Part shown: one piece after another, positions 3,160 to 48,245 of the stretch
How positions within the stretch are numbered: position 1 is the stretch's first letter
How the letters are laid out: every line of letters starts with the position of its first letter
Origin: Chloroflexota bacterium
Lineage (GTDB): Bacteria; Chloroflexota; Dehalococcoidia; Lucifugimonadales; Lucifugimonadaceae
NCBI GenBank assembly: GCA_022567135.1
Contig: JADFHP010000001.1
Location: 1 to 49,027 of the forward strand
Direction: 5' to 3'
Length of the DNA stretch: 49,027 bases
The notes under the pieces: generated by a model
Databases searched by the model: none
Seen by the model: only the letters and a program-made list of their open reading frames with translations
Told to the model about the DNA's origin: nothing
Position numbers and translations under genes: made by a program

Positions 3160-3236
3160 GGGTCAAACCTATTGTAACGATTCGTAAGCGAGTTGGCTAA
3201 TTATCACGGGATTCAGCGTTTGCGGCTAAAAGCCCT

Positions 3237-8750: not shown

Positions 8751-8754
8751 GGAA

Positions 8755-8848
8755 TCACCCAAAAGCGCAAAGAGCGCAAAGTTTTTAATATATTAATTCC
8801 GGATTTTTTCTATCTTCCCCCTTCGCGCCATTGCGCCTTGGCGTGAGA
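8755..8848. repeat. Repeat family B, complete element: 3x(G)CGCAAAG arm, 39-bp AT-rich core, inverted arm
   Basis: The left arm (8755-8781) reads tcacccaaaagcgcaaagagcgcaaag. The core is tttttaatatattaattccggattttttctatcttcccc. The right arm (8821-8848) reads cttcgcgccattgcgccttggcgtgaga, whose reverse complement is tctcacgccaaggcgcaatggcgcgaag. Confidence 0.75.
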
Positions 8849-8917
8849 TCTCTTCTCCCCTTTGCGCGATGAGATGAGCGCGCACATAATCGTGGCGGCA
8901 AACCACGGAGAAGAAAG

Positions 8918-10087
8918 ATGTCAAAGCTGCGAATTACGAAGATAGAAGTCCACGAGTTCCAGTTCGAGATGAATGACGTTGGGAAGGATTACAACGGCTT
9001 CAACCTGGTCTACGAGAAGGGCGGCACGCAAACCGGTACTTCGTACGCCATGAAAGTGCACACGAACGAGGGCGTTGTGGGCGAGTATGTCGGCGGAGAC
9101 TCCCCGGGATTCGCCGAGTTCAACATGTTCGCCGACTATCTGATCGGCCGCGACCCGATTCAACGGGAGTTGATCTATAACGATGTGAAGCGGGCGATGC
9201 GGAAGTTCGACAAGATGGGGATGGGCGCAATCGACATCGCCCTCTGGGACCTGGCCGGCAAATACTATGGAGCGCCGGTCTACGAGATGCTGGGCGGCTG
9301 GCGGACGTCGCTGACCTGCTACGCATCGACGATGCACGGCGACCGGAACGGCGGACTGGACAGCCCGCAGGCGTTCGCCGACTTCGCGCTCCAGTGCAAG
9401 GAGATGGGCTACCCCGCCTTCAAGATTCACGGCTGGGGCGACTACGACATCGACCAGGAGATCGAGACGGTCCACGCGGTCCGCGGAGCGGTGGGACCAA
9501 AAATGAACCTGATGATCGACCCGGCGTGCGAGATCAACACGTGGGTGGAGACTGTGAAGCTCGGCAAGGCCTGCGACGAGGCGAACTACACGTGGCTGGA
9601 AGACCCGTATAAGGACACCGGAATCTCCATGCACGGCCACAAGCAGCTGCGGACGGTGATCAAGACGCCGCTGCTCCAGACGGAGCACATACGCGGCCTT
9701 GAGCAGCACGTTGACTTCATCGCATCCGGCGCCACGGACATTGTGCGAGTAGACCCGGACTACGACGCCGGGATCACGGGCGCGATGAAGATCGTGCACG
9801 CCGCTGAAGGTTTCGGACTGGACGTTGAGATCCACTCGCCCGGCCCCGCGCAGCGCGCCGTGATGGCCGCCACGCGCAACACGAACTACTACGAGATGGC
9901 GTTGCTTCATCCGAATACGCCGGAGATCGGCCGCTGCCACGAGGTATACGCCGACGGCTACCGGGACGCCACGGACGCGATTGATTCGAATGGCCAGGTG
10001 CCGGTGCCGGACGGGCCGGGGCTGGGCGTGGAGTACGACTGGGACTTCATCATGAAGAACCGCACCGGCGGGCGCGAGTATTCGTAG
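8918..10087 (+). CDS. Enolase-superfamily enzyme (mandelate racemase/muconate lactonizing enzyme family; dehydratase or epimerase)
   Basis: 389 aa. It has GAIDIALWDLAGKYYGAPVYEMLGG, candidate metal-ligand segments MIDPA and WLEDP, and a TIM-barrel-like layout. Confidence 0.85.
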   Translation: MSKLRITKIEVHEFQFEMNDVGKDYNGFNLVYEKGGTQTGTSYAMKVHTNEGVVGEYVGGDSPGFAEFNMFADYLIGRDPIQRELIYNDVKRAMRKFDKMGMGAIDIALWDLAGKYYGAPVYEMLGGWRTSLTCYASTMHGDRNGGLDSPQAFADFALQCKEMGYPAFKIHGWGDYDIDQEIETVHAVRGAVGPKMNLMIDPACEINTWVETVKLGKACDEANYTWLEDPYKDTGISMHGHKQLRTVIKTPLLQTEHIRGLEQHVDFIASGATDIVRVDPDYDAGITGAMKIVHAAEGFGLDVEIHSPGPAQRAVMAATRNTNYYEMALLHPNTPEIGRCHEVYADGYRDATDAIDSNGQVPVPDGPGLGVEYDWDFIMKNRTGGREYS

Positions 10088-10099
10088 GGGAGGAAAGTC

Positions 10100-10178
10100 T
10101 CTCGCAAAGGCGCGGAGGCGCAGAGAAAGAGAATATTATTTACCCTTGATTTCTTGGCGGCTTTGCGCCTTTGCGAGA
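10100..10178. repeat. Repeat family B, complete element
   Basis: The left arm (10100-10125) reads tctcgcaaaggcgcggaggcgcagag. The 27-bp core is aaagagaatattatttacccttgattt. The reverse complement of the right arm (10153-10178) reads tctcgcaaaggcgcaaagccgccaag. Confidence 0.8.
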
Positions 10179-10201
10179 GGTCTTGATTCCCGGGGAGGAT
10201 C

Positions 10202-11092
10202 ATGGGAGCGAGAGAGGCGACGACGCCGAAGGTGACGATCATCGGGTGCGGGACGCCGTCTCCGCTGCCTGACAGGTTCGGGTCGGCGCAGCTGGTGGAC
10301 ATCGCGGGCGAGAAGATTCTCTTTGATTGCGGTCCCGCTACGACGTGGAAATTGGTCCAGAACGGCGTCAGTCCGACCGAGATCAACACGGTCGTCTTCA
10401 CGCACCACCATTTCGATCACGATGCAGACTTTCCCGCCTTCATCCTGACGCGCTGGGACCAGATGGTGCCGCGCGACAGGGAGCTTTTCGTCTACGGGCC
10501 CACGCTGACGGAGGAGTTCACGAACGGGATCATCGACGAGGATAGCGGGCTTTTCCGGCACGATTGGAAGGCTCGGGTGGGCCATCTGGGCAGCCAGATC
10601 ACGTATCGGGACCGCGGCGGAGAGTTGCCGCGCTCAAAGCCGCTCGTGATTCCGAAAGACGTTGGTCCCGGCGTGATCGTCGAGACCGACAACTACCGGA
10701 TCACCGGCGCGCCGGCCGAGCATGTGCAACCGTTTCTCGACTCGCTTGCGTACAGGGTTGATACAGACGAGGGCAGCCTGGTGATCACCGGGGACACCCG
10801 CCCGTGCGACTCGGTGACCGACCTGGCGAGGGGTGCGGATGTGCTGATGATGATGTGCTGGGAATCCCACGACCGGATCTCCGCGAGCGATCACGACATC
10901 GCGACGTGCAGCATTCGCGGCGCCGCGGAGACGGCTGCGGAGGCAGGGGTGAAGCAGCTGGTGATGGTGCACATCGGCGGACGCCTGACGAAGCCTGAAA
11001 ATGCCGAGGCGAACGAGCGGGAGGCCCGGTCGGCATGGGGCGGCGAGCTGGTCTGGGGACATGAGCAGATGGTGGTTCCTTGGCCGAAGTAG
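10202..11092 (+). CDS. MBL-fold metallo-hydrolase (RNase Z/beta-lactamase_2-like)
   Basis: 296 aa with the HxHxDH motif in VVFTHHHFDHDADF and an N-terminal IIGCGTPSP. Confidence 0.8.
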   Translation: MGAREATTPKVTIIGCGTPSPLPDRFGSAQLVDIAGEKILFDCGPATTWKLVQNGVSPTEINTVVFTHHHFDHDADFPAFILTRWDQMVPRDRELFVYGPTLTEEFTNGIIDEDSGLFRHDWKARVGHLGSQITYRDRGGELPRSKPLVIPKDVGPGVIVETDNYRITGAPAEHVQPFLDSLAYRVDTDEGSLVITGDTRPCDSVTDLARGADVLMMMCWESHDRISASDHDIATCSIRGAAETAAEAGVKQLVMVHIGGRLTKPENAEANEREARSAWGGELVWGHEQMVVPWPK

Positions 11093-18119: not shown

Positions 18120-19151
18120 CTACCCATCCCAGGCAGCGAGTTCCTCGTTGAACGCGAATACCTGGGGGAGGCCGCCGGAGTGGAGGAACATGATGGTGTC
18201 GTCTTTGCCGAACCGGCCATTTCGGATCTGGTCGATCAGGCCGGACATCGACTTTCCGGTGTAGTTGGGGTCGAGTATCACCGCCTCGGTCTGTGCGACG
18301 AGATGGATGGCCTCGAACGCGGCGTCTGTTGCCGCGGCGTAAGCGGGGCCGGAGAAGCCGTCGAGGATCTCGACATCGTCCGGCTCCAGCGTCACTGGCA
18401 GCTTCAGCAGCTCGGCAGCCTGCCTGGAGCGGGCGACCATCGTCTCGCGCAGCGCCTCATCGTCGGACGGGCTGTACTTGACCGCCGTTGCGGACCAGTC
18501 GAGGCCAAGATTGTTGGAAAACATCTTCAGGGCCGGCAGTGAGCGGCCGGTCAGGCCCCACAGGTGGACTCGGTCGACTCCGATGGCGTCCAGCTGCTCT
18601 TTCAGTTCGAGCCCGGCCTCGATGAAGGCGATCGTGCCCATGATTTCCGGGAACGAATCGTCGTTCAGGATGTACGGATTTCTCCCTTCCGAGCGAACTT
18701 TGTCGGCGAGTGAACGGGCGTACGCAGAAGCGTCTTCCGATTCGGGGATGCGATGAATCTCGCCACCCATAAGCTTCACCAACAGCAGGTTGCCCTGGAT
18801 GGGCCGATCGACCTCGCCGGTCGAGACCAGCAGGTACCGGATGCCTGCCTTCACGCAGCCCGCCGCCGCGACGCGTGCCTGGTTGGAGTGGAAGTTGTTG
18901 ATGTTGATGAGCGTGTCGAATCCGCCCTCGAGAACGTGTGCCATCTCGAACTCGAAGTGGCGCGACTTGTTGCCGCCGTATGCCAGCCCGGTGGCGTCGT
19001 CGCGCTTGACCAGGATGCGGGGGCCGCCGAGCCGTTCCGCCAGCTTCGTCCAGTCCTCGAGCGGTGTCGGGATGTGCGACCAGCGGATGCGCGGGACGGC
19101 GTTAAGGCTCTGCCGAATCTGCTCGACGGTGATTGCGGGGTGGTTGGTCAC
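18120..19151 (-). CDS. PLP-dependent enzyme of the ACC deaminase/D-cysteine desulfhydrase family (fold type II)
   Basis: 343 aa with a GTG start. The motif YGGNKSRHFEFEMAHVLEGG is GGNK with the PLP lysine. The protein ends ...FLHSGGL, as in this family. Confidence 0.8.
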   Translation of the reverse strand: MTNHPAITVEQIRQSLNAVPRIRWSHIPTPLEDWTKLAERLGGPRILVKRDDATGLAYGGNKSRHFEFEMAHVLEGGFDTLININNFHSNQARVAAAGCVKAGIRYLLVSTGEVDRPIQGNLLLVKLMGGEIHRIPESEDASAYARSLADKVRSEGRNPYILNDDSFPEIMGTIAFIEAGLELKEQLDAIGVDRVHLWGLTGRSLPALKMFSNNLGLDWSATAVKYSPSDDEALRETMVARSRQAAELLKLPVTLEPDDVEILDGFSGPAYAAATDAAFEAIHLVAQTEAVILDPNYTGKSMSGLIDQIRNGRFGKDDTIMFLHSGGLPQVFAFNEELAAWDG

Positions 19152-19712
19152 TTACTCTCCTGATACTGGCTGGCACTGGTGGAGATCGGAAATCCGACTG
19201 TCAAGCGCCTGCCGGCTCTCCTCAACGGATTGGCCTGTCGTATCGAGCCGGTTCTGCCCGGGCCAATCCAAACAAGCCTCGCGTTGTGTTCGCGTATATG
19301 TTTCCAGGACGTTTTTCTTCCGTTCCGAGGAACGCCCCAGAACGGCGCTGAGATCGGGCACCAGAACCACGAGAATCGGATTCAGGCCCATCAGCAACGG
19401 CTCCCACGTCACACGATACTCGTCGGGCAAGAACGTTGACTCGACGATGACATCGAAGCCATCTCGCAGGAAGTTCCGCGCCAGCGACACACATTGCCGG
19501 GCGGCCAGCTCGAACTGTTCCGTCTGCTCAGAACTGGATTGCTGGGGGTCTGCGAACCCTCCGATTATCATTTGCCTGACCTCGTCGAGGTCGATGTGTG
19601 CCGCCCGCGGCCGGTTTCCGCACCATGCCCGCGACAGTGTGGACTTGCCGGCGCCTGCCGGTCCCCCCAACAGCACCACAAGCGGACCGACGTGAGAGCT
19701 GCGCGCACTCAT
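19152..19712 (-). CDS. Small P-loop NTPase/kinase (AAA_33/gluconokinase/zeta-like)
   Basis: 186 aa with Walker A LLGGPAGAGKST and an aspartate-containing segment HIDLDEV. Its stop abuts the start of the downstream PLP gene (TAAGTG). Confidence 0.6.
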   Translation of the reverse strand: MSARSSHVGPLVVLLGGPAGAGKSTLSRAWCGNRPRAAHIDLDEVRQMIIGGFADPQQSSSEQTEQFELAARQCVSLARNFLRDGFDVIVESTFLPDEYRVTWEPLLMGLNPILVVLVPDLSAVLGRSSERKKNVLETYTRTQREACLDWPGQNRLDTTGQSVEESRQALDSRISDLHQCQPVSGE

Positions 19713-19725
19713 TTCATGACCCTGG

Positions 19726-20880
19726 TCATCCGCCGGAGGCCGCTTTGATCAGCTCTTCACGCACCCTCTCCGCAACGATCTCCAGTTCGTCGTCCTGGAT
19801 GTTGAGCGGGTCGACGATCAGCTCCCCAGTCTTTGGAATATTCATCAGAAAGATTCGCGGCGTACCGGCCATCAGCCGCCTGTGTATCTCCTCGAAATCC
19901 GGTCCCCGCCACTCGTCGCTGAACGTTATCGCCACCTGGGGTATGTAGTGGTCGCGATCGTGCTTGATGGACGCCACGACGCCGGGGATCTCCACGATCT
20001 GGTCCACGACCAGCTGCATCATCTGCCGGTATCTCTTCGTCTCCTCGGCTTCGTCTGTATTGACGAACTCTTCTACCGCGGCGACGAGGCCCGCCATCTC
20101 CTCCTTGGAGATTTTCTGCGCCCTTGCGATGTTGGCGTTCGGATAGTTGTTCAGCCGGGCGTACTCGACCCATTCGGGAGTGCCTGCCAGAATGCCCGTG
20201 CTCTGGGGTCCGCGAATCCCCTTGCCACCGCTGAAGCTGACCAGGTCTGCTCCCTCGTCAAGGAATTTCTTCAGATTCGATCGCGGCGGCAGCATGGACG
20301 CGGCATCGCAGAGTACCGGGAGGTCGTGGCGGTGTGCGATGTCTGCCAGTACCGGCTGCGGGACCGCAGTGTTGTCTTTGAACGGCGACTCGAGATGGAT
20401 GATGCCTGCCGTCTTTTCCGTAATCGCAGCCTCCACCTGCTCGGGCGTGCACGTTTCGCCGTCGCCGACTTCCACAAAGCGAGCGCCGGGCGCCAGATAA
20501 AGATGGTCGTATATAAAGCGGTGATGCTTCTGGATGATCAACTCGTTTGCCATACCGTCCGTATTCGGCAGCCGACTTATCTTGTCCGGATCGTCACGAG
20601 CGATGGCGGTTGCGGCCTGGACCACGAGGCCGCCCGAGGCGCCGCTCGTGATCGTTGCCGCCTCCGCGCCGATCATCCCGGCAATGAGCCGGCCGGCCTC
20701 GATGACGAACTCGTCGATGTTGAAGAATTTTCCGGACGCCTCTTCCATGGCTCTTATCGCCACGTCCCGCGGGCGGCTGCCGGAGTGTTTCGTGTTGGGC
20801 CCTCCGGCGTTTATCAGCGGCTCAATGCCAAGAAGGATCTGGATGTTTTCGCCGCCTGCTGCACTCCCTTTTGGGTACAT
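19726..20880 (-). CDS. SelA-like PLP enzyme (L-seryl-tRNA(Sec) selenium transferase-related, COG1921-type; not canonical SelA)
   Basis: 384 aa. ADLVSFSGGKGIRGPQSTGILAG parallels the SelA PLP-lysine region DLVxFSGDKLLGGPQAG. It lacks the SelA N-terminal tRNA-binding domain. Confidence 0.7.
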   Translation of the reverse strand: MYPKGSAAGGENIQILLGIEPLINAGGPNTKHSGSRPRDVAIRAMEEASGKFFNIDEFVIEAGRLIAGMIGAEAATITSGASGGLVVQAATAIARDDPDKISRLPNTDGMANELIIQKHHRFIYDHLYLAPGARFVEVGDGETCTPEQVEAAITEKTAGIIHLESPFKDNTAVPQPVLADIAHRHDLPVLCDAASMLPPRSNLKKFLDEGADLVSFSGGKGIRGPQSTGILAGTPEWVEYARLNNYPNANIARAQKISKEEMAGLVAAVEEFVNTDEAEETKRYRQMMQLVVDQIVEIPGVVASIKHDRDHYIPQVAITFSDEWRGPDFEEIHRRLMAGTPRIFLMNIPKTGELIVDPLNIQDDELEIVAERVREELIKAASGG

Positions 20881-22971: not shown

Positions 22972-23904
22972 GTGCCGATGGCAGCTACGACGACCACAAA
23001 TCATTCAAGCCGACGCTTCCCGATTGGCCGGATGCATATCGCCGTTCTTATCCTGGTGATCGGCGCGCTGATGGCCGGCGCCGGTGGGATATACCTGGCG
23101 GTCACGGAAAAGGCCCTCAGCACGCTCGACGATTTCGTAGTCGAAGTGCCTGGCGAGGTCCAGCAGGCATGGGTGGCGCCGCCGGTTGGCCGCGCGGCGC
23201 CGACCGTAGCGCCAGTGGTGTCAGGCGATCAGCCTGCGCCCGAATCGACCATCGTGGCCACCGCCGCTGTTACAGACGAGCTGCCGGGTGAGATTTCGTT
23301 CAATTTTGGCGCCGTTTATCCGGCCGATCAGACCAATCCGCGGTTCTGGTCGAATCCCGAGTTCGCCGGCACCGGCCCTTACGGCGGGAGCGATCTGCCG
23401 GAGGGATTCGAGTTCGTGAGCGCCCTCGACGCCCTGCGCGGGGCTGACGGAAAAAATGAGGCCCTGCGGATCAAGATTCCTTCGATAGGGGTCGACGAGC
23501 CGGTAGGAGAGCTGCAGATCCTGGAAGAGGCGAGCGGGCTGCGGTATGAGCAGCCGGTGGGCCTGGTCGGTCATATTCCGGATACGCCGGATCCCGGACA
23601 GATAGGTAACGGCTGGTATTTCGGCCACCTTGAGAGTCCCATTCTGGGCGAGGGAAACGTGTTCAGGCGGCTCCCGGACATTGCCGAGCTGATCAAGCAG
23701 GATCCGGTGAATGTGATTCTGGAGACTGCCACGGAGGCGTTTCTGTACCGGGTCACAGGTACGACGATAGTGCCGAAGGAGGATCTGGCGCTCACTCCGG
23801 CTCCGACGGCGTCCATCACGCTGGTAGCCAGCTTCCCCTCCCCCGTCTACTCACACCGCTTCCTGGTCACGGCCGAGTTGCTGGCGGCGCGGTCTTTGCG
23901 GTGA
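22972..23904 (+). CDS. Sortase-fold membrane protein lacking the catalytic cysteine (TLVAS instead of TLxTC)
   Basis: 310 aa with an N-terminal TM helix. It has LRIKIPSIGVDEPV, GHIPDTPDPGQIGN.WYFGH, ...YRV....V.PED and ITLVASFPSPVYSHRFLVTAEL. The whole protein contains no Cys. Confidence 0.65.
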   Translation: MPMAATTTTNHSSRRFPIGRMHIAVLILVIGALMAGAGGIYLAVTEKALSTLDDFVVEVPGEVQQAWVAPPVGRAAPTVAPVVSGDQPAPESTIVATAAVTDELPGEISFNFGAVYPADQTNPRFWSNPEFAGTGPYGGSDLPEGFEFVSALDALRGADGKNEALRIKIPSIGVDEPVGELQILEEASGLRYEQPVGLVGHIPDTPDPGQIGNGWYFGHLESPILGEGNVFRRLPDIAELIKQDPVNVILETATEAFLYRVTGTTIVPKEDLALTPAPTASITLVASFPSPVYSHRFLVTAELLAARSLR

Positions 23905-24109
23905 CTCCGGAGAGAAATACAGGGCAGTAAATTCCATTCACGCCTTGAACGCCGAACAGCCGCGATGCAGAGAAAAAACTGTGGGACTGGTGTTTATTCG
24001 GGCTCGCGTGTGCGCGACACTAGACTCCGGCTTGATATTTCTTTCGCCTTTTATTTTCCATTTACAGGGCCGTGCGGCAGACGCACCCGCGGACGAGGAC
24101 GACTAGCCA

Positions 24110-25204
24110 GTGGCAACATCGGCCATCGCCAGGGAAGGCGATGCAGGGGAGGCGGCGACCGCCGATGCGGCGGCGCCCTGGGCCGACAGGTTGCTGTTAT
24201 TTCTGCTCGGCATCTCGGTAGTCGGACTCCTATCGCAGATCACGCTTGGCGGAGTGGTGCGGGTCACCGGCTCAGGCGACGGCTGCCCGGACTGGCCGCA
24301 ATGTTTTGGCAGCTGGATCCCACCCTGGGAGTACCACGCCATCATCGAATGGAGCCACCGGACCACCGGGACGTTCGTCGGCATCATCATGTTGCTGGCC
24401 CTGATTCGTGTTGTGCAGCGCTATCGCGGGCATCGCGCGCTTCTCGGCCTGGCGCTTTCGGGCATGGTGCTGGTCAGTATCGTCGGCGGCATCGGCGGGT
24501 CGGTAGTTCTCACCGATCTCAACCCGGCGATCCGGACGTTGCACCTGGGGCTGGCCGAGATAGTGTTGCTGATAATGCTCGTCGCTCTCGTGGTGGCGGC
24601 CGTACCGCCATCCTGGCGCAGCTTCAATCCGCTTTCGGCCGTCGACGCGGGAATGGTAACGAAGCTGGCGGTCGTGGCGGCCGCTGTATCGCTGATCGCC
24701 CTGCTTTCCGGGGCATACGCCGTCTGGCGGGACGCTGGCGCTGTATGCGGCTCGTGGCCGCTCTGCGGCGGCTCCGTGATACCGGAAGTCAATCTCACGT
24801 GGATCCACATGATTCACCGGCTGCTCGCAGGAATCGGAGCGGTCGTTGCGGCGTACGCCGCTTTCAGGGCCTACCGGCTGGACGGCGCCGGACCGGCCCT
24901 CAAGGGCGCGGCATGGGCGGTTCTCGGAATAATCACGGTGCAGGTGTTGATCGGCGCCGCCAACCCGTGGACCGGATTCGATACCTGGGTCAAGGCGACG
25001 CATCTGAGCCTGGCGACTTTCATGTGGGGCGCAACGGCGCTGCTGGCGGTGCTGATCTGGCTTCCGTACTACCGATCCGGGCGTTCCGGCCGGTCCCGCA
25101 TTTTGACTCCCCAGACGCACATGCAACCGCCGATGCAACCGGCCATGCAACCGGACCCAGGCCCAGAAGAAATGTCACGAGAATCGGCGGCGGCAGATGA
25201 GTAG
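24110..25204 (+). CDS. ctaA: Heme A synthase (COX15/CtaA)
   Basis: 364 aa with a GTG start and a polytopic profile. It has RVTGSGDGCPDWPQCFG and EWSHR. It is translationally coupled to ctaB. The overlapping Arg-rich ORF 23965..25200 is rejected. Confidence 0.85.
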   Translation: MATSAIAREGDAGEAATADAAAPWADRLLLFLLGISVVGLLSQITLGGVVRVTGSGDGCPDWPQCFGSWIPPWEYHAIIEWSHRTTGTFVGIIMLLALIRVVQRYRGHRALLGLALSGMVLVSIVGGIGGSVVLTDLNPAIRTLHLGLAEIVLLIMLVALVVAAVPPSWRSFNPLSAVDAGMVTKLAVVAAAVSLIALLSGAYAVWRDAGAVCGSWPLCGGSVIPEVNLTWIHMIHRLLAGIGAVVAAYAAFRAYRLDGAGPALKGAAWAVLGIITVQVLIGAANPWTGFDTWVKATHLSLATFMWGATALLAVLIWLPYYRSGRSGRSRILTPQTHMQPPMQPAMQPDPGPEEMSRESAAADE

Positions 25205-31735: not shown

Positions 31736-31805
31736 GATTGTTGATTCTTGGAAACTGGCGAGCGGGCAGGACCGATAGCGCTACTGTTCGTTAAGGGAGG
31801 CCTCA

Positions 31806-38862: not shown

Positions 38863-41800
38863 TTGGCCACTCGGATCGAAGAGTCCCTGACACCGCTGAG
38901 CGATGAGGCGATTCGAAGCCTCGTTGAGATAGGTCGCGCGCTGAGCGATGAGCCCGAACTGAGCAGTGCGTTCGAGCGCGTCGTGAAAGCCATGGCGGAG
39001 GTCATCGACTTCGACCGGCTTGTGATCTCGATTGTCGATCTTGCGAAGGGAACGGTCGTCGACGCGAATATCGCCGGTTCGCCCATTGCTGAGCGCACGC
39101 CGGACGATGTCAGGCCCTTGAGCGGCACGGTTGCGCAATACTTCGTGGACAGGACCGAGCCAATCGTCGTCAACGTCGAAACGGTGCAGAGCGCGCTGGA
39201 GAAATTCCCGGCGCTGCAGCGGATCGTCGATGCGGGACTCGAGTCCGGAATCTCAGTTCCCCTCCGGAGCCGGGACGACCTCGTCGGCGTGCTCCATGTG
39301 CGTTCGTATTCTGTGGACGAGTACTCCGCGGCGGACGTCGCATTCACGGAAGCGGTGAGCCATCAGCTCGCAGGGCCGCTGGCATCCGAGCAGTTGCGAT
39401 TACGGCTGGTACAGAGCGCACTGGAAGAGTCGGTTCTGGCGGAGATAAGCAGAATCCTCGGCTCCGGCCTGCGCGTTGAGGACATGTTCGAGCAGTTCGG
39501 CGAGCAGGTGAAACGGCTCGTCCCGTTTCAGAGAATGGTTATTGCAACGGCAGACCCGGCCTCTCATACGGCGAGGGACGAGTATGTGACCGGCCTCGGA
39601 CGGTCTGGTTGGATCCCGGGCGAAAACGTCTCGCTCACCGGGTCGTTGGCCGAGTACATGGTGCACCGCAGAAGTCCGGTCTATGTTTTTGAGGGCGACG
39701 AGAGTTTTGTTGGCAAAGTGCCAGACGACGATCATCATCGCCAATCGATCGGTCTCGCCTCGCTGATCTCTGTTCCAATGATCGCCCAGGGCGAGCTGAT
39801 CGGGAATCTGAACGTTCGTGAAAAAGAGCTGTCGGCCTATACTCTCGACGATGTCCGCAAGATGGAGCGCGTCGCCGCGCAGATAGCCGGAACGCTGGCC
39901 AACCAGAAGCTTCACGACAGCATCTCGCGCCAGGCTTCGGAACGGGAGGTTCTTGCCGAGATCGGCCGCACGATCAACTCAACTTTGCGCCTGGAAGAGG
40001 TATTTGAGCAGTTTGCCGTGCAGGCGAGGAAACTGATCCCGTTCGATCGGATCGTGATTTCACGAGTCGAAGCCGAGTCAGACGATCTAGTGGACGCCTA
40101 CGTATCCGGGCGCGGGGTCGAGGGTTACTCTCAGGGTGGCAGGCACGAGCTTTCGTCGACTACCACGTCTGAGGTGGTCCGGACGGGGCGTAGCCATATG
40201 TGGGCCAAAGCTGAACTGGAGCGACAGGCGAAAGAACTGGACCCTGCGGCGCGCGCGCTGGAAAGCGGACTCAACTCCCTGCTCATAACTCCCCTCGTCT
40301 GGCAGGGAGGGGTTGTGGGGACCGTCAATTTCCGTTCCGAACTGCCCGATCCATACGGGCCGGACGAGATCCGTCTTGCGGAGGAGATCGGAGCGCAGAT
40401 CGCCGGAGCGATCGCCACGACACGTCTCTACGAGGAGTCGGAGCGGGAATCAGCGATTCGGAAAGGCCTGGCCGAGATCGGCAAAATCATGACCTCGAGC
40501 CTCGATCTCAACGAGGTGTTTCCCCGTTGCGCAGATCAGATCGCGCGGCTGATTCCGTTCGACCGCCTCGCGATAATCCTGGTCGATGAAGATGCCGGAA
40601 CGAAGACGGACGCGTATTCCGTCGGCATTGAGATTCCCGGACAAGAGCCCGGTGTGGTGACACCATTGGCGAACTCATTTGCGGAAGAGATCCTCGAGAA
40701 CGGCGGCCCGCTGCTGATAGGGGCGGCGGAGCTGGCCGATCGAGCCGAGAGATTTCCCGGAACGCGTGCGCGCGTTGAGCACGGGCTGATCAGTCTCATC
40801 GCGGTCCCGCTCCTCTGGCGCGGCCGCCCCATGGGAATTTTGAACATCCGGTCCACGCAGGATGACGCTTACGGGTCTGGTGATGTTGAACTGGCCACGC
40901 TGATCGCGGCACAGATTGCGGGCAGCGTGGCGACGTCCACAATGTACGCAGAGTCCGAGCGGGAAGCGGAGATCAGAAAAGGGCTTGCTGCAATTGCAGT
41001 AGCGGCCGCCTCTGACCTTCGGCTTGACCAGATGCTTGAAGGCGTCGCGGATGAGCTGGCGTCTGTAATTCCCTACGACCGCATGTCGGTAACGCTTCGG
41101 GACGTTGATGACCCGCTACAGCTCCGGGTCGCGTTTATTCATGGCATCGAAGTCCCGGACTACGCCGTCGGTGACGTGGTCGCGATCAACCCGGACGGCG
41201 AGGGTCAACCCTGGTCATGGCGGAGCAGTTTCATGACCGGGCTTGGAAGCGAGGAAAGGCCGGGCCTGCTGCGGAGAAGCGGCGAAGAGTTGGGCAGGGA
41301 GTCGTGGATCGAGGTTCCGCTTGGCTCTCCAGAGGAAGGCCCCGTCGGCTACCTGGGCCTGCGCAGCGGAGAGAGCCATGAATACTCCGAAGCCGATCTC
41401 GAGGTGTTGAAAAGAGTGGCGGCGCAGATAACGCCGTCTATCAGCAATAGTCGTCTCCACGAGCAACTCCAGGCAGAGGCACGAGAGCGCGAACTTCTCG
41501 CTGAAATCGGGCGCGTGATCGGAGACGCCCGCAATGTGAGCGAACTTTTTTCACAGTTCAAGGGACTGGCCCAGGCCTTGATCCCATCAGATGGTATCGC
41601 CATCGCGACGATCGACTCGAGAACGCAGCGGTTCACCATCCAGGAGATCCACGCGCCTGATCGTATCGAGATGATCGAACGCGGCACAGAACTGCCTCTG
41701 TTCCCTTCGATGAGCGGAGAGGCATACGAACAGCGGGCTACGATCGTCTACTGCCCCGCGAGCGCTGAAGAGGCGGGCAAGCGATCTCCATCACTGAACC

Positions 41801-44004
41801 GGCTATATGAACTCGGCTCCAGGTCTTTCATGGCGTGCCCGCTGATCTCAAGACGTGAAATCCTGGGCACTCTGCTGTTCCAATCTTCGGCCACGGATGC
41901 TTATACGGAAAAGCACATGCAGCTCGCTGATCGTCTCGCGCGTCAAATCGCAGGGAAGATGGAGTCGGCGCAGTTCCAGGCCCAGTTGCAGGAGGAAGCA
42001 AAAGAGAACGAGCTGCTAGCGGAGGTTGGCCGCGTGATTAGCGGATCAGTCGACATCGGGGAGATGTTTGCGCAATTCAAAGGTCTCGCCCGGGAACTGC
42101 TGCCGATTGATGGGCTGGGCATCGCTCTAATAGACGCGGAGACTGACACGCTGGTCCTGGCCCAGGTCGATACCGGCGGTATCGATCCTTCCCCACCTGC
42201 CCCTGGAGAGATCCGCCGCCGTCTGCAGGATTCGCTGGCGAGGGACGCCTATGCCACCGGGAAACCGGTCATCTACTGCCCGGAAGACCCGGATGACATC
42301 CCCGCTGACTATCCCGGTCTGGAGAGACTTCGCGAAATAGGGGCGAGATCGTTCATGGCGGCGCCCCTCATCTCGCACGGCGAGACACTCGGAGCGCTCG
42401 TGCTCTGGGCGAGGAAGCCATCGGCGTTCAGCGAAGACGATGCCAGGCTCGCCGAACGGCTGGCCAACCAGATCGCCGGTAAGCTCGAGATTGCGAATCT
42501 CGTGGCCGACGTCTCCAAGCTGGCGGCGACCGTTGACGCGAGCCCCGACTTCATTTCACTCTCCGACCCGGATTTCAGGCTCGAATACACGAATCCGGCC
42601 GGCCTTGACCTGATGGGCATGCTCCCCCTTGACGAGACGGACGCTGTCCGGGTGCCGGACCTGTTCACACCGAGCGATGCCAGACGGCTTGAGAGCGAGG
42701 GCCTTAACCAGGCGTTGAGAGTGGGGTTCTGGTGGGCAGAGCTGGAGGCAATGAGGTCCGACGGCTCGACCCTCCCGGTGGAGGCATTGCTAGTGCCGAT
42801 CAAGGATTCCGGTGGCGCGGTGCAGAGCTTCAGCCTCCAGTTCCGTGACATTTCCAGGCGAGTTGCGATTCAAAAAGCGCTCGAAGAAAGCGAAGAGCAC
42901 TACCGAGACCTTTTTGAGAACGCTGAGGAGCTGATTCAGTCCGCTGATGCCGAGGGAAATATTCTTTATGCCAACCGAGCCTGGAAGAGAAGACTGGGCT
43001 ACCGGTCGAGTGAAATCAGATCGATGACGATATGGGACGTCATTCATCCCGATGGCCTTGAACACTGCCGGGAAGTGTTTGCGAAGATCGCCAGCGGCGA
43101 ATCGGTTGGTGAATTTGATGCCGAGTTCGTGACGAAGGCGGGCCAGAAGGTCTTCGTTCGCGGCACAACAACCTACAGATTTGAAGATGGCCGGCCGATT
43201 TCGACGCGGGGAATTTTCAGGGACGTGGGCGCCCGCCTCGAAGTGGAGAAGATGAAGGATGAGTTCGTTTCGATGGTCAGCCACGAACTCCGGACGCCGC
43301 TGACGTCAATCAGGGGTTCTCTGGGCATGCTGGCCAGCGGGCTGCTCGAAGATCGGCCTGAGCAGGCCCGGCGGATGCTGGAGATTGCGTCGGCAAACAC
43401 CGACCGCCTGGTCCGCCTGATCAACGACATTCTGGACATCGAACGGATCGAGTCGCGCGCGATTGACATGGACCTGGCGGCGGTTGACGCGCGGGAAGTG
43501 ATCGGACAGGCCGCCGAAGAGATGCAGTCCTTCGCGGATGAAAGGATGGTCCGTCTGGACGCACGTCCCGGGACGGCATGGGTCATGGCTGATCGCGATC
43601 GAATTGTGCAGACGCTCACGAATCTGATCAGCAATGCCGTCAAGTTCTCTGAGCCGGAATCGACCGTTACGATCGACTGTCACCAGGAGGACGAGCGGGT
43701 TCTGTTCACTGTATCCGACTCCGGCCGCGGGATACCTCCGGAAAAGATCGACGCGATCTTCGAGCGATTCAAGCAAGCCGACTCCTCCGATTCCCGCGAC
43801 AAGGGCGGAACCGGACTGGGGCTCGCAATCTGCAGGTTGATCGTCGAGCAACACGGCGGTCAAATATACGTTGAAAGCGAGATGGGCGCTGGCAGCACGT
43901 TTACTTTCTGGTTGATTCGCGCGCCGTTATCGGAGGTTCCCGCCGCCGGCGATGTTTCCGGCGTTGCTGGCGAACTGATGGCGGCCCCTGGTGAACAAGC
44001 GTGA
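38863..44004 (+). CDS. Giant cytoplasmic sensor histidine kinase: 7 x GAF, 2 x PAS, HisKA, HATPase_c (no TM helix, no receiver)
   Basis: 1713 aa with a TTG start. The anchor motif L(A/V)E(I/V)G(R/K)..........F..........(L)IP(F)DR...I occurs at residues 20, 192, 364, 536, 708, 879 and 1052. Each module ends in ..A.QIAG..A. The H-box is SHELRTPLTSI, the N-box is NLISNAVKF, G1 is DSGRGI and G2 is GGTGLGLAI. Confidence 0.9.
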   Translation: MATRIEESLTPLSDEAIRSLVEIGRALSDEPELSSAFERVVKAMAEVIDFDRLVISIVDLAKGTVVDANIAGSPIAERTPDDVRPLSGTVAQYFVDRTEPIVVNVETVQSALEKFPALQRIVDAGLESGISVPLRSRDDLVGVLHVRSYSVDEYSAADVAFTEAVSHQLAGPLASEQLRLRLVQSALEESVLAEISRILGSGLRVEDMFEQFGEQVKRLVPFQRMVIATADPASHTARDEYVTGLGRSGWIPGENVSLTGSLAEYMVHRRSPVYVFEGDESFVGKVPDDDHHRQSIGLASLISVPMIAQGELIGNLNVREKELSAYTLDDVRKMERVAAQIAGTLANQKLHDSISRQASEREVLAEIGRTINSTLRLEEVFEQFAVQARKLIPFDRIVISRVEAESDDLVDAYVSGRGVEGYSQGGRHELSSTTTSEVVRTGRSHMWAKAELERQAKELDPAARALESGLNSLLITPLVWQGGVVGTVNFRSELPDPYGPDEIRLAEEIGAQIAGAIATTRLYEESERESAIRKGLAEIGKIMTSSLDLNEVFPRCADQIARLIPFDRLAIILVDEDAGTKTDAYSVGIEIPGQEPGVVTPLANSFAEEILENGGPLLIGAAELADRAERFPGTRARVEHGLISLIAVPLLWRGRPMGILNIRSTQDDAYGSGDVELATLIAAQIAGSVATSTMYAESEREAEIRKGLAAIAVAAASDLRLDQMLEGVADELASVIPYDRMSVTLRDVDDPLQLRVAFIHGIEVPDYAVGDVVAINPDGEGQPWSWRSSFMTGLGSEERPGLLRRSGEELGRESWIEVPLGSPEEGPVGYLGLRSGESHEYSEADLEVLKRVAAQITPSISNSRLHEQLQAEARERELLAEIGRVIGDARNVSELFSQFKGLAQALIPSDGIAIATIDSRTQRFTIQEIHAPDRIEMIERGTELPLFPSMSGEAYEQRATIVYCPASAEEAGKRSPSLNRLYELGSRSFMACPLISRREILGTLLFQSSATDAYTEKHMQLADRLARQIAGKMESAQFQAQLQEEAKENELLAEVGRVISGSVDIGEMFAQFKGLARELLPIDGLGIALIDAETDTLVLAQVDTGGIDPSPPAPGEIRRRLQDSLARDAYATGKPVIYCPEDPDDIPADYPGLERLREIGARSFMAAPLISHGETLGALVLWARKPSAFSEDDARLAERLANQIAGKLEIANLVADVSKLAATVDASPDFISLSDPDFRLEYTNPAGLDLMGMLPLDETDAVRVPDLFTPSDARRLESEGLNQALRVGFWWAELEAMRSDGSTLPVEALLVPIKDSGGAVQSFSLQFRDISRRVAIQKALEESEEHYRDLFENAEELIQSADAEGNILYANRAWKRRLGYRSSEIRSMTIWDVIHPDGLEHCREVFAKIASGESVGEFDAEFVTKAGQKVFVRGTTTYRFEDGRPISTRGIFRDVGARLEVEKMKDEFVSMVSHELRTPLTSIRGSLGMLASGLLEDRPEQARRMLEIASANTDRLVRLINDILDIERIESRAIDMDLAAVDAREVIGQAAEEMQSFADERMVRLDARPGTAWVMADRDRIVQTLTNLISNAVKFSEPESTVTIDCHQEDERVLFTVSDSGRGIPPEKIDAIFERFKQADSSDSRDKGGTGLGLAICRLIVEQHGGQIYVESEMGAGSTFTFWLIRAPLSEVPAAGDVSGVAGELMAAPGEQA

Positions 44005-44381
44005 GCAGCCGGCGCATCCTCCTGGTCGATGACGACCCCGGGATTCGGGAGGTTACCCGTGTATCGCTCGAAGCGACGATGGGGTGGGAGGTTCTGACTG
44101 CGGCCTCCGGAAACGAGGCGCTTCGGCTGGCGGGCGAAGAGGTTTTCAACGCCATCCTTCTGGACGTGATGATGCCAGACATGGATGGCGCGGAGACTTT
44201 CGCCCGGCTCCGGGAGCATGAAAAGAGCCGGGCCATCCCGGTGGTGCTACTAACGGCGAAGACGCAGAAGGCGGACCTTGCCAGCTACGCCGAGATGGGC
44301 GTGGCGGGCACGGTGCAGAAACCGTTCGACCCGATGTCCCTGGGCCGTGAGGTGGCAGATGCTCTGGGTTGGGAGGATTGA
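44001..44381 (+). CDS. Single-domain response-regulator receiver (CheY-like)
   Basis: 126 aa with all canonical positions present: LLVDDD, LLDVMMPDMDG, LLTA and QKPF. The GTG start overlaps the kinase stop (GTGA). Confidence 0.9.
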   Translation: MSSRRILLVDDDPGIREVTRVSLEATMGWEVLTAASGNEALRLAGEEVFNAILLDVMMPDMDGAETFARLREHEKSRAIPVVLLTAKTQKADLASYAEMGVAGTVQKPFDPMSLGREVADALGWED

Positions 44382-44399
44382 TAGATTCCGAACCTGATC

Positions 44400-44759
44400 A
44401 TGAATGACCGACGCGAACAAGAATTAGAACAGCAGCTCAACGAAGCCATAGCCGCGGTATGGGAACGGCGGCGAGATCAGGTGATGGGCAGAGTGGGGGT
44501 GCTGGTGCGGGTGGCCGAATCGCTGCGCGAGAGTGCGGCGCCAGAAGTGACGCCCGGCGTGGCGCCGGAAATGACGTCAGAAGCAAAAGATGAGGCCCAC
44601 AGGCTGGCCGGGTCGCTGGGGAGCTTTGGTTTCGATGAAGGTTCCGGCATCGCAGCGGAGATCGAAGAACTCCTGTCGCAGGCAATTGGCGACCCTGAGT
44701 GGATCGACAGGGTTGAAACGAAGGTCATGGCGCTCAAGGCTTACATGGAGACGAGATGA
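44400..44759 (+). CDS. Stand-alone Hpt (histidine phosphotransfer) protein
   Basis: 119 aa, helical. EAHRLAGSLGSFGF matches the Hpt signature HxLKGSSxxxG. Confidence 0.65.
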   Translation: MNDRREQELEQQLNEAIAAVWERRRDQVMGRVGVLVRVAESLRESAAPEVTPGVAPEMTSEAKDEAHRLAGSLGSFGFDEGSGIAAEIEELLSQAIGDPEWIDRVETKVMALKAYMETR

Positions 44760-44813
44760 CCCAGACGATCCAGACGACATCAGTTCCGGCAGCATAGGAA
44801 GCCCGAGTCTGCA

Positions 44814-45494
44814 ATGCACGTACTGATCGTTGAAGATACCCCTGAAGTGGTCGAGATCATCGATGTCGCACTGAAGCTGCGCTGGGCGGATTGCGAGGTG
44901 ACGAGCATAGACAGGGGTGGGCTGGCGCCGGGAATCGTCGCCTCGGCAAGGCCCGACCTGATCATGCTTGACCTGGGCCTTCCGGACGTTGACGGGATTG
45001 ACCTGCTGGAGCAGATCAGGCGCATATCCGAAGTACCGGTGATAATCCTGACCTCGCGTGCCCATGAGGCGGCCAGAGTCCGCGGGCTGGAGACCGGCGC
45101 CGACGATTACATGGTCAAGCCGTTTTCCGCTACTGAGATGCTGGCCAGAGTTCAGGCCGTCCTCCGGCGCGCTTCGCGTTCTGGTGGCGGAGCCGTGGGA
45201 ATTATCACGCGGGAGTCGCTCGCTGTAGACCTGGAGCAGCGCTCCGTGACTGTGGACGGACAGTTCGTCCCGCTTTCCAGGCTGGAGTGGGAAGTCTTTT
45301 CATACCTTGCCAGGAACGCCGGGAAGGTCGTGAAGCACAACGACTTGAAGCAACGCGGCTGGGGGAGCACCATCGTTGAGGATAGTGTTGTGAAGATGTG
45401 CATCCGCCGCATCCGGGGCAAACTGAGCAAAACGGGCGGTGACCCGGAGGTGATTCTCACCCACCGAGGGACAGGGTACAGCTTCATCGGCTGA
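44814..45494 (+). CDS. OmpR/PhoB-family response regulator (REC + winged-helix DNA-binding domain)
   Basis: 226 aa with LIVEDT, IMLDLGLPDVDG, ILTS and VKPF. The C-terminal region LSRLEWEVFSYLARNAG.VV......GYSF is typical of trans_reg_C. Confidence 0.92.
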   Translation: MHVLIVEDTPEVVEIIDVALKLRWADCEVTSIDRGGLAPGIVASARPDLIMLDLGLPDVDGIDLLEQIRRISEVPVIILTSRAHEAARVRGLETGADDYMVKPFSATEMLARVQAVLRRASRSGGGAVGIITRESLAVDLEQRSVTVDGQFVPLSRLEWEVFSYLARNAGKVVKHNDLKQRGWGSTIVEDSVVKMCIRRIRGKLSKTGGDPEVILTHRGTGYSFIG

Positions 45495-46252: not shown

Positions 46253-47335
46253 TTGCCTCTGAACCTGCGAATCCCAGGCCCTACGCCCCTCCCGCCGGAT
46301 GTCTTGGAAGTCACCGGCGGCCCGATGATCAATCACCGCGGCCCGCTCTTTAAAGAGATCATCGACCGGATGACCCGCAACATGCAGACGCTGCTCCAGA
46401 CGGAAGGCGATGTGTACTTCACAACCTCGTCCGGCACGGGAGCGATGGAGACGGCCGTAGTTAATGTCCTATCTCCTGGAGATCGCGTCCTGTCGGTCTC
46501 CATCGGCACATTCGGAGACCGGTTTGGGGACCTCGCCGAGGCATACGGGGCTGACGTAACCCGATTTACGACGAAACTCGGGGACGCAGCGGAACCGGAT
46601 GTGGTCCGGGCGGCGATCCGCGACGCCGACCCGTATAAAGCGATTCTCCTGACACACAACGACACGTCTACGGCTGTGCAAAATGATCTTGCTGCACTCT
46701 CGGCGATGATTCACGCGGAATCTGACGCGCTGATCCTCGTGGACGCAGTATCCAGTGCCGGCGGAACGCCACTCGCCATCGACGCATGGGGCCTGGACAT
46801 GGTCGCCACGGCTTCTCAGAAGGCCTGGACGGCCGCACCCGGCATTGGCGTGATCGCGGTCAGCGAGAAGGCCTGGCAGGCCTATGAGCAGTCCACGATG
46901 CCGAAGTTCTATTTCGATATCGCCCAGTACCGAAGATTTCTCGAGATCGGCCAGCCGCCGTTCACGCCTGCCCTATCGACGATATATGGACTCGATCTGT
47001 CGCTCCAGCAGCTTGTGGACGAGGGATTGGAGTCCGTTCTGGCCAGGCACTCAGACCGCGCGCGGCAGACCCGCGAGGGCGTGAAGCGAATCGGTCTTGA
47101 GTTATTTTGCGAAGAGCGCGTCGCATCTGACACCGTAACCGCCATCAAAGTCCCGGACGGAGTTGACGGCATCGCCGTCATCGCCAAGATGCGCGACGAG
47201 TTGGACGTTGAGATATCCGGCGGCCAGGGGGCGCTCGTCGGAAAGATCTGGCGCATCGGCCACATGGGCTGGTGCGAGCCGGAGCACATCGACGACTGTA
47301 TCGCTGCACTGGAGAAGGCGCTCGCGCGGGACTGA
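46253..47335 (+). CDS. Class V aminotransferase (serine-pyruvate/alanine-glyoxylate aminotransferase family)
   Basis: I prefer the TTG at 46253, with GGAG 8 nt upstream. It has IPGPTPLPPDVLE, TSSGTGAMETAV, LVDAVSS and SQKAW (PLP lysine). Confidence 0.85.
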   Translation: MPLNLRIPGPTPLPPDVLEVTGGPMINHRGPLFKEIIDRMTRNMQTLLQTEGDVYFTTSSGTGAMETAVVNVLSPGDRVLSVSIGTFGDRFGDLAEAYGADVTRFTTKLGDAAEPDVVRAAIRDADPYKAILLTHNDTSTAVQNDLAALSAMIHAESDALILVDAVSSAGGTPLAIDAWGLDMVATASQKAWTAAPGIGVIAVSEKAWQAYEQSTMPKFYFDIAQYRRFLEIGQPPFTPALSTIYGLDLSLQQLVDEGLESVLARHSDRARQTREGVKRIGLELFCEERVASDTVTAIKVPDGVDGIAVIAKMRDELDVEISGGQGALVGKIWRIGHMGWCEPEHIDDCIAALEKALARD

Positions 47336-47345
47336 CGCGTCGCCA

Positions 47346-48245
47346 GTGAAATCGGTCATTCTCGCCCAGTCTGCCGCTATTGCGGTTATCGGTGCGTTGG
47401 GCATGTTCGGCTGCGGCGCCGAGGCGGGCCAGCCGCCGACGGCCGCGGTGGCCGCTCAGCCCGCACCCACCTCCTCAACAATAACGCCATCCGTTCCTAC
47501 TGCAGGGCCGGAGTCGGATGCCGTCGCTCTGCCCGCGTCCGAGGGGCGGTCGCTGCCCGCCACGCAGCGACCGCCTGAGTCGCAGACACTGGAGGACAGT
47601 CTCGAAGCAATAGATATGCCGATGACGAGCATCATGTCTGGCGAGTTCCCCGTTGAGGAGGAGATGCCCGAGCCGACCATGGACAGCGCCCCTGATTCTG
47701 CTGATTCTCGCGAGGTGGGAGGCGGGGCGATCTCCGCGCTCCCAACTCCGGGCGTGGTCGACGATCAGGGCAATCTGCGACAGCCGGAGCCCGGCGCGAC
47801 GCTGATTGACTTCACGTTGCCGCGCGCCGGTGGTGGTGAGATCACGCTATCTGAGATCGGCCGCGATCAAAACACGGTGCTGGTCTTCTATCGGGCTTTC
47901 TGGTGAACCTTCTGCCGCCGCCAGCTCGTCGATCTGGCAAAGAACTACGAAGAGATCGTAGGCACAAATGCCGAAATAGTCGCGCTTAGCACCGACGATC
48001 TGCGAGGCGCCGAATTCGCGGTGGAAAACTTCGTCGCGAAGTTCCCAATCGTCTACACAGACGGTGATCCGGAAATTCCGCGGCAGTACGGCGTTTTCAA
48101 CCTCCACGGCGACGGCCTGGCCTCGGCAGCGATATTCGTGTTCGACAATTCCGGAACGTTGGTGTGGAAATCGGTCGGTAAGAGTTACACGCACCAAGTC
48201 TCGTCCGCCAAATTGATCGAGGTGCTTGAGCAGATCGGCGCCTGA
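47346..48245 (+). CDS. Probable selenoprotein: exported/lipoprotein-like Prx-like (AhpC/TSA, PRX_like2-type) thioredoxin-fold protein with UGA (Sec) at 47904-47906
   Basis: Track ORFs 47163..47906 and 48021..48245 share one frame, and the only stop between them is TGA 47904-47906. Read-through gives DFTLPRAGGGEITLSEIGRDQNTVLVFYRAFW-U-TFCRRQLVDLAKNYEEIVGTNAEIVALSTDD...FPIVYTDGDPEIPRQYGVFNL...IFVFDNSGTLVW. The start is set at GTG 47346 (VKSVILAQSAAIAVIGALGMFGCG, a signal/lipobox-like sequence), which is uncertain. Confidence 0.65.
47910..47944 (+). promoter_or_regulatory. Candidate bacterial SECIS hairpin
   Basis: The apical stem is GCCAG (47920-47924) / CTGGC (47934-47938) with the loop cucgucgau. 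The outer stem is TTCT (47910-47913) / AGAA (47941-47944). The structure begins 4-14 nt after the UGA. It was not evaluated with a covariance model. Confidence 0.35.

Follow-up and report, generated by a model that had tools for sequence, protein, structure and literature searches.

A conserved in-frame UGA, probably a selenocysteine codon, in a lipoprotein-type peroxiredoxin-like protein of SAR202 Chloroflexota

We analyzed a stretch of 49,027 nucleotides from a Chloroflexota bacterium of the family Lucifugimonadaceae (Dehalococcoidia; contig JADFHP010000001.1, forward strand), hereafter called the window, in which a gene for a peroxiredoxin (Prx)-like protein is interrupted by an in-frame TGA codon at 47904-47906. 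According to the analysis presented here, positions 47346-48245 very likely form one gene encoding a 299-residue selenoprotein, i.e., a lipoprotein-type, extracytoplasmic Prx-like thiol:disulfide oxidoreductase with a selenocysteine (Sec)-x-x-Cys redox center. Comparison with homologous loci strongly supports the assignment of the TGA as a Sec codon, from which we infer Sec insertion itself. The main evidence comes from the invariance of this codon among relatives, from homologues carrying a cysteine at the same position, and from a covarying hairpin located downstream, which resembles a bacterial selenocysteine insertion sequence (bSECIS). The features of the gene are as follows.

47346..48245, plus strand: predicted complete selenoprotein coding sequence of 299 codons, with a GTG start, the putative Sec UGA as codon 187, and a TGA stop at 48243-48245
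47346..47414, plus strand: predicted signal peptide with the lipobox-like end VKSVILAQSAAIAVIGALGMFG-C23, Cys23 being the predicted lipidation site (hydrophobic N terminus followed by Cys)
47415..47765, plus strand: low-complexity tether rich in Pro, Ala, Ser, Glu, and Thr, residues 24-140 (from composition)
47793..48209, plus strand: thioredoxin-fold AhpC/TSA-Redoxin domain, residues 150-288 (PF00578, PF08534, and fold matches)
47904..47906, plus strand: UGA probably read as Sec, residue 187 (TGA in 145/145 copies; Cys codons at loci L081 and L082)
47904..47915, plus strand: redox motif U-T-F-C (UxxC), including the codon of the invariant Cys190 at 47913-47915 (conservation and structure alignments)
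47920..47938, plus strand: candidate bacterial SECIS hairpin, GCCAG-C-UC-GUC-GA-U-CUGGC, with G47928 and U47929 in the loop and a free energy of -8.2 kcal/mol

One reading frame across the UGA codon and its counterparts in relatives

Translation confirmed the proposal of a first-pass annotation that open reading frames (ORFs) 47163..47906 and 48021..48245 belong to one frame, which is also that of the GTG at 47346, with no further stop codon between them. From this GTG, whose position matches the start chosen by gene callers in near-identical relatives (P0030 and L083), the only internal stop is the TGA at 47904-47906, found in the local sequence FYRAFW-TGA-TFC. When a Cys was put at the TGA, the Pfam AhpC-TSA family (PF00578) matched residues 150-274 (2.3e-20; 73.2 bits for a cut-off of 26) and the Redoxin family (PF08534) matched residues 150-288 (3.9e-15; 56.3 bits). 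Each match runs as a single stretch over codon 187, as would be expected from the first-pass description of the joined product as one AhpC/TSA domain. The same annotation had anticipated that standard gene callers would report a truncated gene followed by a fragment, and this is what was found in the near-identical public contig JADFPH010000001.1, where the gene appears as two separate ORFs, 186 and 103 amino acids long. The 186-residue ORF has no Pfam match, and the 103-residue ORF is labeled "redoxin domain-containing." Elsewhere in the window TGA behaves as an ordinary stop, since it closes 10 of the 27 Pfam-supported genes, including the selenoprotein gene and its upstream neighbor; the recoding would therefore be local and not the consequence of a variant genetic code. 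Other ORF-TGA-ORF junctions of the window with Cys-, Ser-, or Thr-type motifs were only out-of-frame artifacts, and the candidate junction at 31742 was rejected as lying opposite a real minus-strand gene.

To examine the codon in relatives, a species-representative genome collection was scanned with the C-terminal 91 residues, which gave 80 loci found almost exclusively in metagenome-assembled genomes (MAGs) of Dehalococcoidia, SAR202, and other Chloroflexota. The complete genome of a cultured SAR202 strain, “Ca. Lucifugimonas marina” JH545, also carries the gene (L026; NZ_CP046146.1), as do the complete genomes OZ253938.1 and OZ244715.1. An in-frame stop at the identical column, with protein conservation on both sides, was present in 79 of the 80 loci, the single exception (L075) having lost its N-terminal half. 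Copies were then counted by a pattern scan over the window and 79 loci, i.e., 80 sources in total. All 145 copies have TGA at this column, TAA and TAG never occurring. The family consensus around the codon is FYRAxW-U-xxC, in which the Cys three codons past the TGA is invariant while the residues between them vary. Conservation at the protein level extends over both flanks, including the 38 codons that separate the TGA from the next possible start, GTG 48021. One copy was located on a contig labeled as an “uncultured Alphaproteobacteria bacterium” MAG (CAJWOI010000282.1, L074); this contig is probably mis-binned, since the copy is nearly identical to that of a Chloroflexi locus (L076).

A search of a protein collection returned two full-length relatives with a Cys at the stop column, along with dozens of fragments that either end exactly at ...FYRAFW or begin soon past the stop. 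The closer relative, P0001 (L081), is 83% identical and reads FYRAFWCTFC with a TGT codon, and the more distant one, P0004 (L082), is 56% identical and reads FYRAWWCLYC with a TGC codon. Both proteins carry their Cys exactly where the TGA had been proposed to replace the first Cys of the motif.

A covarying hairpin downstream of the UGA codon

The first-pass annotation had also pointed to a hairpin at 47910-47944, within the range expected for a SECIS element. A hairpin is indeed present, although the conserved element is restricted to 47920-47938. In the family, it lies at a fixed offset and consists of GCARCU, a 5-nucleotide (nt) loop, and AGYUGC, forming a 6-bp stem that begins 14 nt past the UGA, with the loop at 20 nt. 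All six stem pairs are formed in 107 of the 145 copies and five of the six in another 36. In the loops observed (AGGUG, CGUCG, AGUUG, and CGGGA), the second base is G and the third is G or U. The hairpin of the window gains two extra base pairs at its base, and its loop lies 20-21 nt past the UGA. Published rules for bSECIS elements call for a loop of 3-9 nt, a stem of at least 4 bp, a G in the first two loop positions, a distance of 16-37 nt from the UGA, and a minimum free energy of -7.5 kcal/mol or lower (PMC13188914). With its C-GUC-G loop, its free energy of -8.2 kcal/mol, and its spacing, the window hairpin falls within all of these limits.

The pattern of substitutions is particularly informative where the third position of a Gln codon (CAA/CAG) pairs with the first position of a Leu codon (UUG/CUG). 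This pair is AU in 81 copies, GC in 48, GU in 14, and AC in only 2, whereas 28.6 A.C combinations would be expected among the 145 copies. When changes were mapped on a neighbor-joining tree built from the remainder of the protein, the pair underwent at least 24 state changes, including 7 direct switches from AU to GC, and only 2 moves to A.C. Another stem pair occurs as GC in 77 sequences and as CG in 6 others, one of which is the window. Overall, pairing holds in 82% of cells over the stem columns, and it drops to 5-50% when the 3′ arm is slid by 1-3 columns. Synonymous choice also appears constrained, as the Leu codon of the 3′ arm is nearly always YUG (G in 106/110), the Leu codon whose third base falls in the loop is CUA or CUC, and the Glu codon of the 3′ arm is never GAA. 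Judged from the alignment, the hairpin is thus more than a by-product of protein conservation, because the pair covaries, synonymous codons are restricted, and pairing is lost upon sliding. It provides a clean natural case of SECIS covariation at synonymous sites within a coding region. Among the Cys forms, the hairpin is intact in the close relative L081, despite its TGT codon, and degraded in the more distant L082; L081 points to a recent Sec-to-Cys change or to strain polymorphism.

Redox center, export, and competing explanations

The position of the putative Sec within the active site was examined using structure alignments. Residue 187 is matched to the leading Cys of WCPPC in PDB 3kcm, a member of the thioredoxin family, and to the Ser of the PxxxT/SxxC motif in the peroxiredoxins 2cx3 and 1we0, while it is Cys190 that aligns with the peroxidatic Cys. 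Of the two positions initially considered for the Sec, the first Cys of a WCxxC motif was therefore retained and the peroxidatic Cys was not. In the alignments with 2cx3 and 1we0, the Prx signature is largely lost, the Pro being replaced by Arg and the Ser by Sec, with the Cys at the peroxidatic position alone kept. The catalytic Arg of peroxiredoxins is also replaced by Ala (GLADRGTF in 1we0 against GLASAAIF in the window), and the family reads LASA[SA] throughout. These two failed signature features exclude a canonical peroxiredoxin. The scaffold is nonetheless that of this superfamily, since 2cx3 is the closest solved structure by sequence (E = 1.4e-7). The nearest folds found by Foldseek are Bcp (Bcp4), AhpE, and AhpC structures (3hjp, 4x0x, and 1xxu), with target template modeling (TM) scores of 0.85-0.89; the query was the AlphaFold model of the Cys homologue P0001, 83% identical, and not of the window protein itself. 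The predicted local distance difference test (pLDDT) values of the P0001 domain are approximately 79-97. In NCBIfam, all best matches (SelL-related, ResA, AhpC, StoA, and TlpA) remained well under their cut-offs, with 32.8 bits for a cut-off of 170 for ResA, 20.9 for 210 for StoA, and 17.1 for 230 for TlpA. By these sequence and fold comparisons, the protein is a Prx-like scaffold carrying a thioredoxin-type U/CxxC center and belongs to the Prx-like thiol:disulfide oxidoreductase class. The first-pass annotation had left the choice between a Sec-peroxidase and an oxidoreductase; the latter fits better because the Sec is off the peroxidatic position and both the Prx Pro and the catalytic Arg are missing.

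The region preceding the domain suggests a location outside the cytoplasm. A basic and hydrophobic N terminus ending in a lipobox-type ...[LVI][AVF][AG]C sequence was found in 104 of 114 copies (approximately 90%, using a loose pattern). Canonical lipoboxes, for instance LVAC, IACG, and VVGC, occur in relatives, and close relatives have VVGC, VIGC, and GIGC. It is followed in the window by a tether of about 117 residues, 68% of which are Pro, Ser, Thr, Ala, Glu, or Gly, and linkers rich in Pro, Thr, Ser, Ala, and Glu precede the domain in relatives too. In the AlphaFold model of P0001, the N-terminal region (about 115 residues) is mostly disordered, with a mean pLDDT of approximately 39-54 except for one 10-residue block. 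The combination of a signal/lipobox-like peptide and a linker that had been described initially is thus a feature of some 90% of copies, while the linker is shorter than the 150 residues first estimated: about 117 residues, or about 145 residues ahead of the domain when the signal peptide is included. No twin-arginine motif was evident among the N termini listed, which suggests that the chain is exported unfolded. The protein would accordingly be exported as a precursor and lipidated.

These elements can be assembled into a working model. The hairpin at 47920-47938 would recruit SelB with Sec-tRNA(Sec), so that the UGA at 47904-47906 is decoded as selenocysteine. The precursor would be exported, receive a lipid on Cys23, and be held at the outer face of the cytoplasmic membrane, from which the disordered tether of about 117 residues would keep the redoxin domain at a distance. 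The selenolate of Sec187, as the N-terminal nucleophile of a WCxxC-type motif, could then attack oxidized substrates such as disulfides, sulfenic acids, and possibly peroxides. Cys190 would resolve the adduct to a selenylsulfide, to be recycled by a reductant. The substrates and the electron donor of the redoxin are both putative.

Of the competing explanations, the one to be taken most seriously, although we consider it rather doubtful, is that of a genuine selenocysteine peroxidase. In this scheme, H2O2 or organic hydroperoxides would oxidize Sec187 directly to a selenenic acid, which Cys190 would resolve, and the protein would remove peroxides at the cell surface instead of reducing protein disulfides. 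Chemically, a Sec backed by a resolving Cys can carry out peroxide reduction of the glutathione peroxidase type, and the nearest scaffolds by both sequence and fold are those of Bcp, AhpE, and AhpC. Cultured SAR202 isolates are also described in their cultivation paper, in which selenium is not mentioned, as unusually light-sensitive, and catalase addition was tested during isolation. However, the Sec occupies the Thr/Ser position of PxxxT/SxxC instead of the peroxidatic one, and the changes of Pro to Arg and of catalytic Arg to Ala are family-wide. In addition, W-C/U-x-x-C is the motif of ResA/TlpA-type reductases, and ResA, StoA, and TlpA follow the SelL-related family among the NCBIfam matches.

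The other two explanations deny that the UGA encodes Sec. Readthrough could insert another amino acid, through a near-cognate Trp or Cys tRNA or through Cys-tRNA(Sec), the hairpin being a readthrough stimulator or a ribosome pause site. The stem is short (6 bp), and the amino acid inserted is not distinguishable from sequence alone. Such readthrough is nevertheless highly improbable, given that the position is that of the nucleophilic redox Cys in homologues, that the distance, loop size, and loop G[G/U] of the hairpin match the consensus of SelB-dependent bSECIS elements, and that the lineage is reported to be rich in selenoproteins and to possess a Sec pathway (PMC13326102). Still harder to defend is a genuine stop, whether in a pseudogene, by assembly error, or between two genes, the first for a lipoprotein cut short after its N-terminal part and the second for a short C-terminal piece. 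Public gene calls do give the 186- and 103-residue ORFs, and no Sec machinery is visible within the window. Yet the same column holds TGA without exception in 145 copies from about 80 species, both flanks are conserved as protein, including the 38 codons up to GTG 48021, and the downstream Cys is invariant. Neither half would be a complete thioredoxin fold, and homologues with a Cys codon exist.

Several observations weigh against the interpretation of the gene as that of a lipid-anchored selenoprotein. Sec in this subfamily is a prediction from sequence. The window hairpin contains one C.U mismatch and, taken alone, is no better folded than shuffled sequence (z = -0.57), a second folding of the window sequence giving z = +0.78. 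RNAalifold found no consensus structure in the 48-nt alignment; since neither single-sequence folding nor this program gave a result, the hairpin was named and counted on the alignment. Rfam reported nothing at gathering score, and the sole match at E values up to 10 was a chance snoRNA. The N terminus of the window protein ends in ...ALGMFGC, and M-F-G-C is a non-canonical lipobox when compared to [LVI][ASTVI][GAS]C. A tRNA-Sec search with ARAGORN was negative for the window and the 80 loci alike, and no selA, selB, or selD was found in the window or in 1.5 Mb of the relatives' loci by tblastn with approximate sequences of E. coli SelA, SelB, and SelD as queries. Finally, no CcdA/DsbD-type electron donor, cytochrome c maturation, Msr, or obvious substrate gene is linked to the locus, whose neighbors are housekeeping genes.

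The sole tblastn match was SelA-like and lies at 19726-20880 on the minus strand; Pfam and NCBIfam identified it as a DgaE-family SelA-related ammonia lyase and not as SelA. It belongs to a minus-strand trio at 18120-20880, which comprises a CuyA-like/D-cysteine desulfhydrase pyridoxal phosphate (PLP) enzyme (18120-19151), an AAA_33 P-loop kinase (19152-19712), and the DgaE-family PLP ammonia lyase (19726-20880). Despite the SelA Pfam match, this trio looks like a small catabolic cluster and not like Sec machinery. The genes upstream of the selenoprotein gene are conserved among relatives and encode 3-deoxy-D-arabino-heptulosonate 7-phosphate (DAHP) synthase, RibF, tyrosyl-tRNA synthetase (TyrRS), and a class V aminotransferase, while a DUF1015 protein is encoded downstream on the opposite strand. 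In the window, TyrRS and the aminotransferase are separated by a block at 38863-45494 (plus strand), made of a gene for a 1713-residue sensor kinase (about six GAF domains, PAS, HisKA, and HATPase) followed by response regulator, Hpt, and response regulator genes; the two flanking genes are closer together in most related loci. Other features include a sortase-domain protein at 22972-23904 (plus strand), followed by a 411-residue ORF without Pfam or NCBIfam match at 23965-25200, and a 670-residue Ser/Thr protein kinase adjoining an FHA-domain protein at 1147-4343 (minus strand).

Multiple copies in SAR202 and relation to known systems

The number of copies differs between sources, with one copy in 45 of the 80 (including the window), two in 5, and three in tandem in 30. 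In three-copy loci, the copies lie on the same strand approximately 600 nt apart, two with FYR[AG]xW-U-xxC and one with FYRGFF-U-GIC, each having its own TGA, hairpin, and lipobox. Loci with tandem copies include L006, L017, L021, L023, L025, L028-L040, and L046 (9333, 9935, and 10514). In other cases, two or three redoxin domains connected by Pro-rich linkers share one frame, with a TGA in each (FYRGLF*GIC ... FYRAFW*IHC), as in L084 (1-1101, frame 1), L007 (approximately 9086-10270), L013 (approximately 8438-10258), and L014 (approximately 9167-10270). If each UGA is decoded in the same way, each of these fused chains would contain two or three selenocysteines. Some genomes carry an additional lipoprotein-type redoxin-like paralogue just downstream, in which neither CxxC nor UxxC occupies the motif position (...VVFLPTATNAWDLE...); examples are found in L015 (10316-10873), L019 (1080-1496), L026 (10496-11140), and L041 (10296-10919).

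The split-gene annotation error consequently recurs up to three times per genome over an abundant ocean lineage. A conserved set of surface-tethered selenoproteins would imply that SAR202 bacteria have a selenium requirement and an extracytoplasmic redox function, both of which are directly testable in culture with JH545, as this strain carries the gene. As a more speculative extension, which we think unlikely as it stands, the whole SAR202 clade might need selenium to equip the cell surface with one to three lipid-anchored UxxC redoxins, some of them fused with two or three Sec residues. This would constitute an extracytoplasmic thiol/selenol system exported unfolded as lipoproteins, and its loss of function without selenium could be one reason why the isolates grow slowly and are sensitive to light and oxidants.

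The selenoprotein family itself is not new. Prx-like thiol:disulfide oxidoreductases (PF00578) with UxxC or UxxU motifs, first predicted in 2004 and represented by WP_010940744.1 of Geobacter sulfurreducens, are among the selenoprotein families that published lists give as “predicted with high confidence” (PMC13188914, PMC9312934). “Prx-like 1” (pfam00578, UxxC) accounted for 225 sequences of the Global Ocean Sampling selenoproteome (PMC2398784). According to a 2026 database paper, two marine Dehalococcoidia MAGs contain 46 and 49 selenoprotein genes, and all of the paper's source species possess the Sec pathway (PMC13326102). Our search of the literature on SAR202 and Chloroflexota selenoproteins found nothing specific to the lipoprotein redoxin subfamily. 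The protein is therefore less unusual as a selenoprotein than first assumed, since its family had already been predicted as such. The window subfamily shares with the Prx-like UxxC family the AhpC/TSA scaffold, a Sec in first position of UxxC, a downstream SECIS within the coding sequence, the existence of Cys homologues, and marine abundance. It differs in being specific to Dehalococcoidia/SAR202, in its predicted lipoprotein signal and disordered tether of about 120 residues, and in often occurring as two or three tandem paralogues or as multi-domain, multi-Sec fusions.

Similar comparisons can be drawn with other thioredoxin-fold proteins. The best NCBIfam match, the SelL-related family NF040769, has in common the Prx-like thioredoxin fold and a Sec at a CxxC position, but the score of 42.1 bits for a cut-off of 120, over 97 residues only, indicates that the protein is not a member. 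SelL proper is eukaryotic and has a UxxU motif. With ResA, TlpA, StoA, and CcmG, the window protein shares a W-C-x-x-C-type motif, the thioredoxin fold, and a predicted N-terminal anchor holding it outside the cytoplasmic membrane, and ResA structures as well as the unnamed thioredoxin-family protein 3kcm align with it motif to motif; it differs from them by the putative Sec in place of the nucleophilic Cys and by a scaffold nearer to Bcp/AhpE than to TlpA. Etrx1 and Etrx2 of Streptococcus pneumoniae are likewise thioredoxin-family lipoproteins of the cell surface. The Bcp/PrxQ, AhpE, and AhpC peroxiredoxins are the nearest relatives by sequence and fold but have a different active-site signature. 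Compared to these systems, what is new here is modest and consists of the SAR202-wide conservation, the architecture combining a lipoprotein signal with a tether, and the tandem and fused multi-Sec forms.

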